Below are positions 7,952-14,332 of a DNA stretch of 64,000 bases, in pieces; the first letter of the stretch is position 1, and each line of letters starts with the position of its first letter. Location: positions 1-64,000 of IMG/VR virus record IMGVR_UViG_3300020049_002596; one strand, written 5' to 3'. A program made the position numbers and the translations under genes. The notes beneath the pieces were generated by a model. That model did no database searches, was not told the origin of the DNA, and was given only the letters and a program-made list of their open reading frames with translations. The DNA comes from a virus (Duplodnaviria; Caudoviricetes).

Positions 7952-9109
7952 CTATTCCGTATCATCAACAACTTCTATTATTGACTGCCATGCTCTTACA
8001 TGTACCATTTCTGCATTTAATTGAGTAGCTTGTTGTGCTCTTAACATTTGCAAATCATAAGTCTCTTGTAAAGGTCTTATCCTTTCAACTAAAGATTGTG
8101 CAGTTTGAGGAGAGACACTATCAACAATATTACCATTAGCATCTATGAAAGAATTTAAAGCTGTATAAGGATAAACTGTATGGGCAGTTTCTTCTTCATT
8201 ACTGTCTTCAAAGTCTTCATCTAACCAATCTTCATCATCTTGATCATCTTCATTAGACAATTCAGGTTGATGGTCAAATAAAGCAGCTTCAGCTTGTATT
8301 TCAGCCAATTCTCTAGCTTCTGCTGAGAGTTGTGCAATGCTACCAGTCACATTGTGGGTAACATACAGATTTTCTACAACAGGAGTAGCTTCATTGTCAA
8401 ACAGCATAGCTTCTTCTTCTACGGAAAGTTCTTCTCTATGAATTACTACAGGTTCAAATTCTTGCTCAACAAAGATGTCCTCTCCTCCATTGTGCAAAAA
8501 GTCTGGTAGTACTTGATTCATATAGGCTTCTAATTGTGTCAAAGACTTAGTCTTTTTGACTTCAAATAATCTTGCAAAGGTATTCTTCTCAATTTCTGAT
8601 GAGGGAATCACTCTTACCTCTATACCTTTTTCATAGCAAGATTGTAATATTTCTTTTTGAAGTCTCCTATTTAAAGGAGTTAGACCAGGGTCAGTGAAAA
8701 AAGAAGTGGAATAAAATAAAACGTAATTATTGTAGGAGAATGTTCCTTCATTGTATAAGTCAGAGAACTTAGCAACTTCAGGACTAAAGTAAGCTTCCTT
8801 TTTCATAGCACATACCATTAAAGGTACTCTCTGCTCTGAAAAGAAAACTCCTTTTGCTATAAAAAACTTTCTGTTGTTAATGGCTATTTCTCTAGCAGTA
8901 TGCCCATACTGAAAACCATCTTTAATGTTTTTAAGAGTATTGGGCTTTCTGATAACAATTTCAAAACTAGGTTTAGAATACATTTGGATATCTTCTATAC
9001 TAAAACTATTTTGTACAGAAACTAGAGGAATAAATTCATTAGCAATAAAAGCAGTCATATCAAAATTAGAAGGTTCAAACCTTCCCAGATTGTTACAGCT
9101 AATTATCAT
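7952..9109 (-). CDS. Hypothetical protein with acidic C-terminal region, coupled to the E1 gene
   Basis: 385 aa; 4-nt overlap with the ThiF gene; EDDQDDEDWLDEDFED tract. Confidence 0.7.
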   Translation of the reverse strand: MIISCNNLGRFEPSNFDMTAFIANEFIPLVSVQNSFSIEDIQMYSKPSFEIVIRKPNTLKNIKDGFQYGHTAREIAINNRKFFIAKGVFFSEQRVPLMVCAMKKEAYFSPEVAKFSDLYNEGTFSYNNYVLFYSTSFFTDPGLTPLNRRLQKEILQSCYEKGIEVRVIPSSEIEKNTFARLFEVKKTKSLTQLEAYMNQVLPDFLHNGGEDIFVEQEFEPVVIHREELSVEEEAMLFDNEATPVVENLYVTHNVTGSIAQLSAEARELAEIQAEAALFDHQPELSNEDDQDDEDWLDEDFEDSNEEETAHTVYPYTALNSFIDANGNIVDSVSPQTAQSLVERIRPLQETYDLQMLRAQQATQLNAEMVHVRAWQSIIEVVDDTE

Positions 9110-9804
9110 AATTCTGATTGTGTGAAATTCATAGGAACCACAAATTCATAATAAAAAGGGACCTCTCTGATAGTCTCTCCTGCATAGACATTAGCAATGT
9201 GATTGGTAAAGAAAGCAGACATAATAGAACCTATCATACCTGCAGTATGAGAAGTCTGTTTCATAGTACAAGGAGCTTCATTCACAACATTGTCATGAAA
9301 CAAATGCTCTCTTTCATACTTATCTGCATTCTCAGGAGTAACACAGAATATCTGTAATTGCTCTAACTCTAATCTACCATCTATAAAGATAGGCATATTC
9401 ATAGAGGGAGCAGAACCCCAAGATTCTTTCCAATTATGGAATAAAGTATTTCTAGCTTCCATATTATCAAAAGCAGAAAAACTGTAATAATGATGAGGAG
9501 TTACTCTAGTAACTCTCTCATTAAAAGTAGATATTCTTCCTCCACAAAACATATTAACTACAGCTTCAATAGCAGTTACTTTGGGAATTCCTAGGTCTTG
9601 TTGTCTAAATAACTGTCCACCTAAATTATGGTCTTCAACAAGGTCAAAATCATAAAGATTAACCTTAAAACCAATTTTAGTTAGAAAGAATACTAACCAA
9701 GAACCAATACCACCAGCTCCTCCTACTAAACAAATCTCATTGTTTCTAGGGAACCATGGTGCATCTTTAAATCTACTTTGCTGGTTGTTGCTTTCTTGCC
9801 TCAT
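9106..9804 (-). CDS. ThiF/E1-family ubiquitin-like activating enzyme
   Basis: GAGGIG, DFDLVEDHNLGGQ, AFDN, IDGR, candidate catalytic Cys in EAPCT. Confidence 0.9.
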   Translation of the reverse strand: MRQESNNQQSRFKDAPWFPRNNEICLVGGAGGIGSWLVFFLTKIGFKVNLYDFDLVEDHNLGGQLFRQQDLGIPKVTAIEAVVNMFCGGRISTFNERVTRVTPHHYYSFSAFDNMEARNTLFHNWKESWGSAPSMNMPIFIDGRLELEQLQIFCVTPENADKYEREHLFHDNVVNEAPCTMKQTSHTAGMIGSIMSAFFTNHIANVYAGETIREVPFYYEFVVPMNFTQSEL

Positions 9805-10951
9805 TTTCTAAGAATTTATTAATCATTGAACTAATAGTTGAAATAGACAATCTGATTTCAGGGTATTGTAAAACCATGTCTTCTAACAAGTCTGTAACTT
9901 CATGAGTGTACTGAACAAAATCAACAGAAGATGCTTTTGGAAAATGTTTAGCAAAAGTAGGGGCATAATCATTGATTACACTTTTAGCTATCTCTTGAGG
10001 GCTAAGGTTATACTCAGCTAAATCATCTAGCACATCTTCTAGGTATTGTTCTTCATCTTGAGGTCCTGTGGCATAAGTAAACAAACTTTTTGCAAACTCA
10101 TAGATCTCAATTGCATGTAAGTCAACATCTTGCAAGTCTTCAAAGTCTGTAAACAGAGCTTGAGCAGGTTCTTGCCAATCATCAAACCATCTTTTGATAG
10201 GTTTTTCAGGTTGTGGAGTAGTAGTGGTTCTAGACCAACCTTGTCCTGCAGTCCCTGTGTGGTTTGCACCCCAACCTCCTTGATTAACAACATTACTGGG
10301 TTTCACAGGTTTAGGCTCCATAATCTTAGCTACTTGAGCTGCAAATGATTCAGAAACTACCTCTTGAACTAGAGGAGTAATCATCTCACAGTCATAGATA
10401 AACAACTTTTGAGTGTTAACTTCAAAGTCTTGTTTTTCAATAACATAATCATGGCCTTGTACATTTTTAGCTGTATAAGGAACCTGTTTAATATCTCTTT
10501 TAGCTTCTCCTATAAAAGCAACTTTAGCTAGGAAGTCCATAGCATTATTTACAATTAAAGATAAGTAAAAGTTATGTGCTGGAGCATTATCATTTAGCTC
10601 AGCCATGTCTGTACCTGAAAAGAAAACTGCCATACTGTTATGACTATGGATATGACCTAGTTTCCAAGTGCATCTTTCTTCAAAATCTTCTTCAATAAAA
10701 TCCATAAATCTATCATCAAGACTATACTCAGTGTAAGCTTGAGAACCCATATCTAATGGAAGGATTGTTTTTAAAGTTATTTTGAAAGTTTCAGGATTTT
10801 CAATACTACCTTCAGTAGTATAAAATAAAGCACCTGACCACTCTACTTTTGATATCTTTTTACAAAGATACTGTATCTGATGTAACACCTCTTTGGGCAT
10901 TGTTACTGGTATGATAGAGCCTAGCTGCACTCTTGACAACTGCTTTCTCAT
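9773..10951 (-). CDS. JAB/MPN+ metallo-isopeptidase
   Basis: EWSG plus exact JAMM motif HSH-x7-S-x2-D (HSHNSMAVFFSGTD); start taken at MRKQL 10951, the track starts at 10981. Confidence 0.88.
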   Translation of the reverse strand: MRKQLSRVQLGSIIPVTMPKEVLHQIQYLCKKISKVEWSGALFYTTEGSIENPETFKITLKTILPLDMGSQAYTEYSLDDRFMDFIEEDFEERCTWKLGHIHSHNSMAVFFSGTDMAELNDNAPAHNFYLSLIVNNAMDFLAKVAFIGEAKRDIKQVPYTAKNVQGHDYVIEKQDFEVNTQKLFIYDCEMITPLVQEVVSESFAAQVAKIMEPKPVKPSNVVNQGGWGANHTGTAGQGWSRTTTTPQPEKPIKRWFDDWQEPAQALFTDFEDLQDVDLHAIEIYEFAKSLFTYATGPQDEEQYLEDVLDDLAEYNLSPQEIAKSVINDYAPTFAKHFPKASSVDFVQYTHEVTDLLEDMVLQYPEIRLSISTISSMINKFLENEARKQQPAK

Positions 10952-12053
10952 AGATTCTTGACTCAAGTTCTCTAATGACATAATCTAAAAAATTAGGATA
11001 AATAATATGATCTTCTATTGATACAGGTTTTGATAACCTAGTATCTTCTTTAATAATTTTAGGGTAAAGTTTTCTACCTCTAAAAAGTGTGTAATCTTCT
11101 GTGGCCTGGATTTTAACTCCAACAGTGCCAACAGCATTTTCAGCTTTCATTTGTAGAAAGTGATTATAAGTATTTGGTACTCTACTTACAAGAATAGTTT
11201 GATATTCACTAAAAGTTAAGCAAGTTAAAGCTACTCTTTTAATAAATTCAGATGCTCTGACATTAGGGTGTATTTTATAAAGACCTTCTGATATGTAAAA
11301 ATCTACATCTAAAGGAATTTTTTGGTCCATAATTGTCTTTAAAATTTTGTTAGCATATCTTGAGTTTATACTACTAACTCTAACAGAGTCAGCATTTTTA
11401 ACTGTTTCCATTCTAATAAAAGGTACCCCTTCTAAAGATTCCCAAGTAATCATACTATCTACACAGAATAAGAATAGTTCATATCTATCCATATCCATAT
11501 CTACACTAAATTCAGCCATCATTCTGCTCACATCAGTGTCTCCACCAACACAGAAATAGCTACAATACAAAGGCTCTAATTGCCAACCTCTGTGAGTACC
11601 TAAATGACTTTGTTGATACCCTGAAAGAATTTCTAATTTTGTTTTAGACAATCTTCCACCCTCTAATTTAGAAGGATAAAGTGCTTCTCCATTCCATTTA
11701 AATAAATGAATTACAAATAGATCTTTTATCTCATGAGTTTTTCCTTGACTATTAGTAATAATGTACTTAGGATAAAAAACTTTAAAGTAAGGTATAAATT
11801 CTATTCCATTATAAAAGAAGTCTAAGTCAGCTTGATCTTTGTATTTAGCTTCAAACAAATCTAATATTGCAAAGAAGTCTTCAGATAATTTAGTGACATC
11901 ACTAATACCTTCAGCTCCTTCAAAAACAATATGAAATTTTTCAATCAGCTTTTTTAAGAACTTCTTGTTCTTATGTTGACTGGTTAAAACAGCATTATGG
12001 AGGATTCTAGCAATATTGCCACCTCCTGTATTAGCTTTTATTGATCTTGACAT
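10860..12053 (-). CDS. Putative prokaryotic E2-like conjugating protein
   Basis: SHLG...YFCVGG resembles the E2 His...Cys-x-Gly signature; lies between the Ubl and JAB genes. Confidence 0.55.
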   Translation of the reverse strand: MSRSIKANTGGGNIARILHNAVLTSQHKNKKFLKKLIEKFHIVFEGAEGISDVTKLSEDFFAILDLFEAKYKDQADLDFFYNGIEFIPYFKVFYPKYIITNSQGKTHEIKDLFVIHLFKWNGEALYPSKLEGGRLSKTKLEILSGYQQSHLGTHRGWQLEPLYCSYFCVGGDTDVSRMMAEFSVDMDMDRYELFLFCVDSMITWESLEGVPFIRMETVKNADSVRVSSINSRYANKILKTIMDQKIPLDVDFYISEGLYKIHPNVRASEFIKRVALTCLTFSEYQTILVSRVPNTYNHFLQMKAENAVGTVGVKIQATEDYTLFRGRKLYPKIIKEDTRLSKPVSIEDHIIYPNFLDYVIRELESRIYEKAVVKSAARLYHTSNNAQRGVTSDTVSL

Positions 12054-12056
12054 AAT

Positions 12057-12095
12057 AAAAAAATTAAAGGGCTTACATTAAATAAGCCCTTAATT
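12057..12095 (-). terminator. Intrinsic terminator after the Ubl gene
   Basis: AGGGCTTA/TAAGCCCT stem (12068-12090) followed by a T-run on the minus strand. Confidence 0.7.
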
Positions 12096-12099
12096 AATA

Positions 12100-12762
12100 C
12101 TAGTAACCTAATTCTCTAGCTTCTTTAGCTAAGTCACTTTCTTCAGAGTCAGAGTCAGAAAAACTAACTTCTTGTAAAAGTCTGTTCAAGTGCTTGTTAG
12201 CTTTGTAGTGAGAATCATAGCTATCCAAAGAAGAGATTAAGGCAATAGCCTCTTCTACTTTCTCAACATCAGTCAAGTCAGTATCATCTACTGCTGGAAG
12301 AGTTCCAACAACTTCTCTAACTGATTCATTCACACTTCTGCTGTTAGCAGTAGTAGCTTTAACACAATACTTAGCAACTAAGTCTTGTACTGTTGCAGTA
12401 GGTAACTGAGTTACATTTCTACCATTGATGCTAAACTTAGCCTTGTCTTCAGGATGGTTTAACAAATGTACTTTGATTGCAGCAAAACATTCTTTTCTGT
12501 CAAGAGCACCTGACTTAGTTTGTTTTGGTCTTAAGAACAATCTGAAAGCAGATGTTGGTAACACAGCTAAATCATTTACTAAGTCTGTCTTAGTAATGTT
12601 CTCAGCTGCTAATAATGATGACAAATCAAACCCTGCATTTCTTACAAGAGGTTGTAATTCTCCCCAAGTAGTTACATCAGTAGTTATTTTTTGCATTTGG
12701 CCACCTCTTGTGGCATAAATTGTGATCTCTCTAGAGATACCTGGAGCTTGTACTTCACTCAT
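12100..12762 (-). CDS. Putative ubiquitin-like (beta-grasp) precursor with C-terminal extension
   Basis: Residues ~11-85 show a beta-beta-alpha (TTWGELQPLV)-beta pattern ending FRLFLRPKQTKSG85, followed by a helical domain; first gene of the E2/JAB/E1 cluster. Confidence 0.55.
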   Translation of the reverse strand: MSEVQAPGISREITIYATRGGQMQKITTDVTTWGELQPLVRNAGFDLSSLLAAENITKTDLVNDLAVLPTSAFRLFLRPKQTKSGALDRKECFAAIKVHLLNHPEDKAKFSINGRNVTQLPTATVQDLVAKYCVKATTANSRSVNESVREVVGTLPAVDDTDLTDVEKVEEAIALISSLDSYDSHYKANKHLNRLLQEVSFSDSDSEESDLAKEARELGY

Positions 12763-12773
12763 GGTTTTAAATT

Positions 12774-13307
12774 TTAAAGATTAATTAATTCTTTTTGTCC
12801 TTTCTTTTTCAAGAGGATGTTTATGTGTTTAAGGTTGATATACAATCCTTTGAACACATAATTATAATCTACATTTATAGGAATTTGATGAATTGTTTCA
12901 TCATCATAATTGATCACATTAAATATGGTCTTAGCAGGTAGATTAGCTGTATAACCCTGTGATTTTGTTGTTGGCAATAGCCAAATGCAAGGATTACTCC
13001 TCGCAATAAAATAGATAACTTTCTTAATGAATGAAGCCCAATACTCACTATGGTCTGCATTAGCCCCATAAGTTAGAGACATTCTCAGAAAAAATAGGCC
13101 TTCTTGTACTATAGGAGAAGCTTCTTCTCTAGCTATTAGCACAACCTTAATTTCTGATACAGGCATAGAAAAAACCCTGAATACTTCATCAGCTTCAGGG
13201 TAATATTTTTCTTGGGGTAATATTTCATTCTTGAAATGAAGGAAAGCATCTGTGTTAAACTCACTCAGGAGTGGCCTCCAAGAGTAATGAATTAAACTAA
13301 AATTCAT
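12774..13307 (-). CDS. Degenerate uracil-DNA glycosylase (family 1) homolog
   Basis: HYSW...YP...VFRVF...IKVVL matches the UNG N-terminus, but GQDPY and HPSP are absent. Confidence 0.6.
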   Translation of the reverse strand: MNFSLIHYSWRPLLSEFNTDAFLHFKNEILPQEKYYPEADEVFRVFSMPVSEIKVVLIAREEASPIVQEGLFFLRMSLTYGANADHSEYWASFIKKVIYFIARSNPCIWLLPTTKSQGYTANLPAKTIFNVINYDDETIHQIPINVDYNYVFKGLYINLKHINILLKKKGQKELINL

Positions 13308-14332
13308 TCTGTAAAATCTTTTAAAAATTGATTAAATAAAGATTTGTCTTTAGCTATACAATCAGATGGGTCTTTTATACCCTGTTCTAAGCTTCTTTCA
13401 GGAAGCCAAAGATTTCTTGCTTTACCTGGAATAAGGTTGTTGATGTGGTTTTTGACTTTCTCAGAGGCTATTATACCAGGTTGATCATTATCAAACCATA
13501 CAAGTACACTAACAAAAGGTTTAATTAGCAGGTTTAAAGTTTCCTCACTAGGTATCATACCTTCATTTTGAAACCAAACCACATTTTTACCATTATTCTT
13601 CAGTACTCTATAATCCTTATAAGACTTAGCAATGATTAATTCTTTACCAGAATGTAACAGAGAATTGATGCCACCTACATCATTTTTGGTACAATTGGTC
13701 AAGAATCTTCTTTTGCCTTCCCTCATAGGGAAATAGATTTTCTTCCTAGATTCAGGGAAATCATTGTAACTGTATGCAATATCTTTGCAATCAATTATGT
13801 GACTTCCTGATTTGGTGTTCAAAGCAAATAACTTTTGAACAGGAAAAACCCTGTCTTCAACTAGATGTTTCTTTCTAATCTCATATTGAGACCAAAATTG
13901 AGCATCTGCAGCATTAAACAGTCTTGCTTCAATTAGTAATTTAACCTTTTCTTTGACTATCTTTTTAGTCTCTTCCTGATTTTTAATAGGCTCTAGACCA
14001 GTCTTCCCTTGTATAAGAGTTTTGTGGATATATTCTAGAGTCAAGTAGAAATTTGGGAATTTGAAAAAGTCTTGTACCATATTGAAACAATCACTATGGG
14101 TTCTGCTATGAGCAAAATCAATAAAATAAAGAACTCCATTAGTATGGTAACTAAACCAACATCCTGCAGTTCTATCATATCTTAAAGGAGATACTACATA
14201 GTCAAACTCTTGCGGAATATAATTGAACACTAACGCAAATATTTCTTCTTGAGTGACTAAACTAAGAATGCTTTCCTTGCAAATAAAACCTCTTCTATTT
14301 AAGTTATCTGAATTATAGTGATATGTGCTCAT
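13304..14332 (-). CDS. DNA primase (TOPRIM)
   Basis: SPLRYD N-terminal domain, KSYKD, FDNDQPG, KDPSD. Confidence 0.85.
   Translation of the reverse strand: MSTYHYNSDNLNRRGFICKESILSLVTQEEIFALVFNYIPQEFDYVVSPLRYDRTAGCWFSYHTNGVLYFIDFAHSRTHSDCFNMVQDFFKFPNFYLTLEYIHKTLIQGKTGLEPIKNQEETKKIVKEKVKLLIEARLFNAADAQFWSQYEIRKKHLVEDRVFPVQKLFALNTKSGSHIIDCKDIAYSYNDFPESRKKIYFPMREGKRRFLTNCTKNDVGGINSLLHSGKELIIAKSYKDYRVLKNNGKNVVWFQNEGMIPSEETLNLLIKPFVSVLVWFDNDQPGIIASEKVKNHINNLIPGKARNLWLPERSLEQGIKDPSDCIAKDKSLFNQFLKDFTE

Follow-up and report, generated by a model that had tools for sequence, protein, structure and literature searches.

A 64,000-nucleotide stretch of a phage genome (Duplodnaviria; Caudoviricetes; IMG/VR record IMGVR_UViG_3300020049_002596, positions 1 to 64,000; hereafter the window) encodes on its minus strand a protein of 220 amino acids (aa) in which a predicted ubiquitin-like (Ubl) domain is followed by a long C-terminal tail. 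The protein is probably a precursor that consists of Ubl (residues 1–85) and a second protein (residues 86–220) and that is cut by a JAB metallopeptidase encoded nearby. The source record comprises 95.5 kb and is rated complete; the G+C content is 34%. The genome is that of a crAss-like phage, related to crAss001, cr111_1 and others of the Steigviridae (Crassvirales) and also to Flavobacterium FpV4-like phages. The genes on the minus strand follow the order primase, 177-aa gene, Ubl fusion, 397-aa protein, JAB and E1, and the last four form a cassette whose counterparts in crAss001 are Gp79–Gp76. The genes of the cassette are:

12100–12762, minus strand: Ubl-fusion gene, 220 aa; phrog_15560; homolog of crAss001 Gp79
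10860–12053, minus strand: gene of a 397-aa protein of unknown fold; phrog_15310; homolog of crAss001 Gp78
9773–10981, minus strand: JAB/JAMM metallopeptidase gene, 402 aa as listed; candidate processing enzyme
9106–9804, minus strand: ThiF/E1-like adenylating enzyme gene, 232 aa

The open reading frame (ORF) of the Ubl fusion reads FRLFLRPKQTKSG up to residue 85 and continues with ALDRKE. Gly85 is internal, with 135 residues beyond it. The protein is divided as follows:

12526–12732, minus strand: predicted β-grasp core, residues 11–79; strands 11–17, 22–28, 50–54 and 73–79, helix 33–42
12508–12525, minus strand: flexible C-terminal tail of the Ubl module (KQTKSG), residues 80–85; Lys83 and Gly85 invariant
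between bases 12508 and 12507, minus strand: proposed scissile bond Gly85-Ala86
12352–12498, minus strand: small helical mid-domain, residues 89–137; a free-standing ORF in cr116_1
12271–12351, minus strand: linker of variable length and low model confidence, residues 138–164
12103–12270, minus strand: acidic helical hairpin, residues 165–220, ending with Gly-Tyr

A model of the full-length protein was calculated with AlphaFold2 from an alignment of 143 sequences and has a mean pLDDT (predicted local distance difference test) of 88. Residues 11–79 are modeled with a pLDDT of about 97 and show a β-β-α-β-β topology. Confidence dips to about 73 for residues 81–90. Beyond the Ubl module the model has helices at residues 89–137 and 165–217, the latter forming a hairpin, and is disordered at residues 138–164. 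The region of residues 141–220 is acidic, with 19 Asp and Glu in 80 residues. The earlier interpretation made from the sequence alone (the sequence-only reading) had described an internal Gly85 followed by about 135 residues of helical and acidic sequence, and this is borne out by the translation and by the AlphaFold2 model.

Searching the PDB with Foldseek returned ubiquitin-like structures near-exclusively (Ubl and UBX domains, SUMO, ubiquitin, ISG15, MoaD and Caldiarchaeum ubiquitin), with target-normalised TM-scores of up to 0.70 and a probability of 1.00 in most rows. VIA-align, which is independent of Foldseek, gave the same picture: the best 50 chains are nearly all ubiquitin-like and cover model residues from about 5 to 84. 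Examples are the UBX domain of UBXD7 at the top (pdb entry 5x3p, chain A; Z-score 8.4, r.m.s. deviation 2.2, 73 residues aligned) and FAT10 (Z-score 8.1, 78 residues aligned). Model residues 11–83 align with residues 1–75 of ubiquitin, and Gly85 thus comes close to the position of Gly76 of ubiquitin. A Z-score near 8 alone is not decisive for a small domain, but because the list of matches is uniform and the topology agrees, the predicted β-grasp fold of residues 11–79 is a safe assignment. At the level of sequence, the whole 220-aa protein has no match to a Pfam family, a profile search against PDB sequences gave spurious coiled-coil matches only and PADLOC gave no match except one spurious Macro-domain row.

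The homolog family is large (621 matches in a collection clustered at 90%; 1013 representatives of 50%-identity clusters at E-values up to 0.001). To assess conservation, 143 full-length homologs, each representing a 50%-identity cluster, were aligned with MAFFT. Lys83 and Gly85 are the sole invariant columns of this alignment, and position 84 is occupied by Ser in 119, Ala in 19 and Gly in 3 of the homologs. The sequence-only reading had called for a look at homologs for a conserved Ser-Gly boundary, and a variable Gly85 would have spoken against it; Gly85 does not vary and its predecessor is Ser, Ala or Gly. The mean frequency of the most common residue is 0.57 in the β-grasp core (residues 11–79), rises to 0.79 in the flexible tail (80–85) and amounts to 0.39 just after the Gly (86–88), 0.42 in the mid-domain (89–132) and 0.18 in the linker (133–164). 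A hotspot of insertions and deletions starts directly past Gly85. In a larger count of 419 sequences the site was located via its K-x-G motif, which leaves just the positions on either side as informative. Most of these sequences have a small or aliphatic residue behind the Gly; the position is otherwise varied, but Pro never occurs there (0/419). Judged from these alignments, Gly85 is not a chance feature.

Natural variants of the junction show how the two parts behave when they are not joined. Four homologs of 77–79 aa end one residue past KSG. Two of these are IMG/VR loci (L054 and L079) and two are database proteins (P0272 and P0305). These short forms surfaced through a profile of the Ubl domain; querying with the window protein gave one contig-end fragment only. 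Both loci were inspected: past the stop codon comes a strong hairpin with a T-run, and the next gene is the homolog of the 397-aa protein. JAB and E1 are retained in both. No separate tail gene was found in the records of L054 and L079, which are incomplete; the window's own genome was the positive control. In a tree of concatenated JAB and E1 sequences the two loci fall at separate places, L079 being the sister of a long-tailed form with a support of 99, and the class of the tail switches at least five times. This tree comes from a quick maximum-likelihood search and has long branches, and only the non-monophyly is used here.

In the crAss-like phage cr106_1, the gene is interrupted precisely at KSG by an HNH endonuclease ORF, and Ubl and tail each have an ORF of their own. 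The upstream ORF encodes 92 aa and ends with KKIKSG-KF. It is 82% identical to residues 1–90 of crAss001 Gp79 and the alignment stops at the Gly. The downstream ORF encodes 130 aa, has its own start (METKI-MTRNEL) and matches residues 176–225 of Gp79 (E-value 3e-8); the new start METKI was gained just ahead of the point where the old sequence resumes. The 397-aa homolog, JAB and E1 come after the split pair. The possibility that the fusion is restored by a self-splicing intron was rejected, as Rfam gave no intron match at E-values up to 1. Furthermore, the HNH ORF is flanked by only about 10 and 27 bases. Without an Rfam intron and with almost no non-coding sequence around the HNH ORF, the two halves are made as separate polypeptides.

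The complementary case is cr116_1. Neither JAB nor E1 was detected in this complete genome, and its only match to the Ubl profile is weak (E-value 0.011), lies within an open frame of 2557 aa and is read as noise. An 82-aa ORF is kept that matches the tail profile over the mid-domain (E-value 2.9e-5). It begins with MSRKEL, which corresponds to the residue after the junction in crAss001 (KSG-A/MSRAE). This free-standing tail ORF has the same neighbourhood and comes just after an HNH ORF. Related HNH endonuclease ORFs are thus found at the junction of Ubl and tail in both genomes:

L085:5001–6204: HNH endonuclease ORF of cr106_1
L086:4410–5249: HNH endonuclease ORF of cr116_1

Taken together, the variants place the end of the Ubl module at KSG and show that Ubl and tail need not be covalently joined. 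They also show that the tail domain is able to function in the absence of the Ubl system. The sequence-only reading had proposed a fusion of two parts, of which the released one could have a function of its own. Both proposals gain support: the first from the β-grasp model, the short forms ending one residue past KSG, the split gene of cr106_1 and the lone tail of cr116_1, the second from the tail as an ORF of its own in cr106_1 and the mid-domain standing alone in cr116_1.

A second match to the tail profile, in its C-terminal part (profile positions 93–148, E-value 1.2e-4), is present in cr116_1 in a 169-aa ORF (W01 85826–85990, minus strand; locus L093) and may represent a relocated C-terminal hairpin or merely a coiled-coil resemblance. 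At a contig end (L026:7001–7438), Ubl residues 1–86, 84% identical to those of the window, are joined in one ORF to primase-like sequence directly after KSG; this ORF may stem from a chimeric assembly or from recombination at that site.

Tail length varies between 1 residue and over 200, and the tails fall into at least three classes; what follows the Gly is variable or dispensable as far as the Ubl system is concerned. In the window the tail contains the mid-domain, which is made up of two helices, a short hairpin and one helix. Asn116 and Thr118 are conserved in at least 90% of the 143 homologs and the mid-domain is thus under selection. A large group of homologs carries a second, unrelated class of tail of about 57–93 aa without the mid-domain. 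Most tails of both classes (218/300 long tails and 110/127 short tails) finish with an acidic helix and then, close to the C-terminus, a Gly and an aromatic residue; this acidic C-terminus looks like a docking motif. The replication-module context of the cassette invites the speculation, and only that, that the tail contacts a replication or recombination protein. The tail modeled alone gave no informative match with Foldseek or VIA-align, where the matches cover only the helical hairpin. Pfam revealed no consistent family among 53 tails and a search of the Atlas with the tail gave no usable match.

One class of tail starts with a highly acidic stretch rich in Trp (for example IDWEDGISW..DWS) and ends with N(L/M)G(L/I)(F/Y)D; it is seen in P0271, P0273, P0283, P0284, P0291 and P0298 as well as the loci L058, L068 and L080. 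The homolog from cr126_1 (BFVD A0A7M1RYT6, 308 aa) bears the automatic name 'bL12 C-terminal domain-containing protein'. This name may reflect merely its linker rich in Lys, Glu and Ala; if the label is real, this homolog would have a ribosomal-protein-like partner.

The linkage of the Ubl gene to the enzymes was examined in 80 related IMG/VR loci, 52 of which have at least 3.6 kb of sequence downstream of the Ubl gene. All 52 carry homologs of JAB and E1, with gene order and strand unchanged, and a recognisable 397-aa homolog is present in 51 of them. The JAB protein has weak matches to Prok-JAB in Pfam and to a generic JAB entry in PADLOC. Its JAMM signature is complete (Glu47 and H112-x-H114-x7-S122-x2-D125) and invariant in 49 homologs.

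The E1-like protein contains a ThiF Rossmann domain (Pfam, 1.5e-13), with a weak, generic match in PADLOC, and its profile matches in the PDB include MccB, UBA5, SAE2, NAE, ThiF, MoeB and Cap2. The Gly-rich nucleotide loop, Asp52, Asp54, Lys75, Asp113 and Arg118 are invariant and Cys179 is nearly so. Residues 57–64 read E-x-x-N-L-G-G-Q, the second Gly being invariant. ThiF, MoeB and E1 enzymes usually have N-L-x-R-Q at this place, with an Arg that contacts ATP. The invariant Arg11 near the N-terminus might substitute for it. The E1 proteins of crAss001 (Gp76, L084:8760–9911) and cr106_1 (L085:8761–9972) comprise about 383–404 aa; the E1 homology is confined to the C-terminal 230 residues. They have an additional N-terminal domain of about 170 residues, which is missing in the 232-aa E1 of the window.

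The 397-aa protein has the invariant residues Ser149, His150, Cys168, Gly170, Glu205, Ser206 and Gly209. It could be an E2-like component or a target.

The cassette sits in the replication module of the genome, where its neighbours are the primase, a UDG-like gene, a recombination exonuclease and a resolvase. Two further features frame the Ubl-fusion gene:

13304–14332, minus strand: primase gene, upstream; the 177-aa gene intervenes before the Ubl-fusion ORF
12067–12091, minus strand: terminator-like hairpin with T-run, between the Ubl-fusion gene and the 397-aa gene

The layout of the terminator in the window is mirrored after the short Ubl genes of L054 and L079. Its position fits a highly expressed substrate gene that is followed by enzyme genes expressed at a lower level. 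The ORFs of the 397-aa protein and of JAB overlap as listed by 122 bases (window 10860–10981, minus strand) in different frames, and nearly all related loci have a comparable overlap. Residues 1–27 of JAB as listed show little conservation, and at residue 28 a conserved Met-Pro begins. For both reasons the true start of JAB may be internal; such a start would leave an overlap of about 40 bases with the 397-aa ORF.

The cassette suggests the following order of events. The neighbouring JAMM enzyme would cut the bond between Gly85 and Ala86 after T-K-S-G on the flexible tail of the Ubl module. The exposed carboxylate of Gly85 would be adenylated by the neighbouring ThiF/E1-like enzyme. ThiF, MoeB and E1 enzymes need a free C-terminal carboxylate. 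The mature Ubl would then be used for conjugation or, less likely, for sulfur carriage; conjugation is rated higher because the cassette is without sulfur-relay genes. The same cut would free residues 86–220 as a second protein, one-for-one with Ubl. Cleavage at Gly85 by JAB is proposed because Gly85 is the sole Gly conserved in all members, including the short forms, because JAB is the sole peptidase of the cassette and because JAMM enzymes provide precedents. On comparative and predictive evidence, cleavage at this bond is likely, and we hold it with good confidence; that JAB is the enzyme is also probable, if slightly less firmly held, judging from the context and from experimental precedents.

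Several observations weigh against this proposal. The motif is Ser-Gly and not Gly-Gly. The extensions of known prokaryotic Ubl precursors that are processed by JAB enzymes do not exceed nine residues. No E2 was recognised in the cassette, and the 397-aa protein has no usable match in Pfam, in PADLOC, in the profile search against the PDB or in the Atlas. The tail modeled alone has a pLDDT of 73, which is below its confidence in the full-length context. Since the tail is under selection and is modeled better as part of the full-length protein, it may contact the Ubl domain and the protein may act uncleaved.

The last point leads to the first alternative, a two-domain protein that stays intact. 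The β-grasp domain would be a non-conjugated adaptor of the UBX or Rad23 type, TKSG would be a conserved hinge or a binding motif, and JAB and E1 would act on another substrate. Many β-grasp domains are indeed never conjugated, and the best fold matches include UBX and Ubl domains. An intact adaptor is nevertheless unlikely: forms that end one or two residues past KSG retain JAB and E1, the gene of cr106_1 is split exactly at KSG, and an invariant Lys and Gly stand at the end of the flexible tail, while no other protein of the cassette has a conserved C-terminal Gly.

About equally improbable is that cleavage takes place as proposed and that the mature Ubl is a sulfur carrier of the ThiS/MoaD type, thiocarboxylated by the small E1. 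With 232 aa the E1 has about the size of ThiF or MoeB, no E2 was recognised, and trios of JAB, Ubl and E1 occur in sulfur pathways (PMC1779556). However, a search confined to the cassette revealed neither a rhodanese nor a cysteine desulfurase, a ThiG/MoaE-type partner or a PP-loop enzyme. The motif is Ser/Ala-Gly instead of Gly-Gly, no ThiS or MoaD match was found in Pfam at E-values up to 0.1, and the cassette is part of a lytic phage's replication module.

The cut at Gly85 might also be made by a host protease, by the 397-aa protein or by autoproteolysis, with JAB merely removing conjugates. The invariant Ser149, His150 and Cys168 of the 397-aa neighbour would be compatible with such a role, and eukaryotic ubiquitin precursors are cut by cysteine deubiquitinases (DUBs) and not by JAMM enzymes (PMC6043591). 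On the other hand, every cassette contains an intact JAMM enzyme, and bacterial and archaeal JAMM enzymes have been shown experimentally to process Ubl precursors; we regard another protease as an improbable choice. Activation of the extreme C-terminus (Gly219-Tyr220, trimmed by JAB) rather than of Gly85 was rejected as very improbable, as this end is not conserved: close homologs finish with GY, GYR or GF, but Gly219 is present in just 84/143 homologs, crAss001 Gp79 ends with FDFVD and the cr111_1 homolog with LAMR, short forms without the tail retain E1 and JAB, and the C-terminal part is helical and not a β-grasp.

Returning to the precursor cut at Gly85, a wider interpretation can be offered tentatively. 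A large group of crAss-like and related phages, the cultured crAss001 included, might carry in the replication module a complete, self-encoded Ubl conjugation system in which the modifier is fused to an autonomous accessory protein, as in eukaryotic ubiquitin fusions. JAB would then produce Ubl and an accessory factor in equal amounts. The Ubl would be attached to proteins of the phage or of the host, and the factor, with its acidic C-terminus, would possibly associate with the replication machinery. The gene would then be the first case of a functional ubiquitin-fusion gene in a bacterial virus. This wider interpretation is possible but rather doubtful.

Trimming of Ubl precursors by JAB enzymes is already known, and the new variation is the long, conserved and autonomous partner in a phage Ubl system. 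No description of this crAss-like cassette was found in the papers that were searched, which is not proof of its absence. Trimming by operon-encoded JAB peptidases was shown experimentally not long ago, in archaea and in defence systems of bacteria, and those cases involve the loss of a few residues; here a conserved protein would be released. The same logic would apply to a bacterial virus, with more than 1000 sequence clusters from crAss-like and related phages that include abundant lineages of the human gut. If the proposal is true, the fusion of a Ubl to a second functional protein would not be solely a eukaryotic invention. Confirmation would also offer an entry point to the four-gene cassette, which is conserved in crAss-like replication modules and was previously without an assigned function. 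Both crAss001 (Gp79–Gp76) and Flavobacterium FpV4-like phages are cultured, so that the prediction is directly testable.

In eukaryotic ubiquitin-ribosomal protein fusions, the reading frame of an N-terminal ubiquitin continues into an unrelated functional protein. The arrangement proposed here would be alike in that a second protein is freed after the last Gly and the products arise one-for-one (such fusions are also discussed in PMC6043591). The likeness drawn in the sequence-only reading holds for the autonomous partner but neither for its identity nor for the sequence of the Ubl: the phage partner is not ribosomal and belongs to no Pfam family, and the phage protein has no sequence homology to ubiquitin. 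Additionally, the presumed phage protease is a JAMM enzyme and not a cysteine DUB.

A closer parallel for the protease is the ubiquitin of Caldiarchaeum subterraneum, from whose precursor the JAMM enzyme CsRpn11 removes nine residues (PMC6043591). There, too, a JAMM enzyme encoded together with ubiquitin and E1 strips a C-terminal extension and exposes a reactive Gly. The archaeal system is cellular, however, and its nine residues follow a Gly-Gly and have no function of their own.

In the bacterial defence systems of the Bil (BilABCD) type, the JAB enzyme BilC cuts BilA after a conserved Gly and also cuts a fusion of BilA with GFP (PMC10557695). The shared features are a β-grasp Ubl, residues beyond a conserved Gly, and a JAMM peptidase and an E1 in the operon; moreover, BilC tolerates a large fusion. 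The natural extensions in Bil systems comprise at most nine residues, whereas the phage tail has 135 residues and is conserved and structured. The phage cassette also differs in its location in a replication module, in having no recognisable E2 and in its lack of membership in the Bil or CBASS families, the PADLOC matches being weak and generic and limited to JAB and E1.

The remaining comparison is with another phage protein, the lambda tail protein I, a Ubl with a C-terminal domain for which the same cleavage step has been predicted (PMC1779556). Pfam matched the window protein to none of the phage tail protein families. Both are phage Ubl proteins with a conserved Gly at which cleavage is predicted, a linker, a second small domain and a JAB gene nearby. 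The lambda gene lies in the tail-assembly module beside those of gpK, a JAB-NlpC/P60 protein, and gpJ, its protein has a Gly-rich linker and it is not accompanied by an E1, whereas the present cassette belongs to a replication module and includes an E1.

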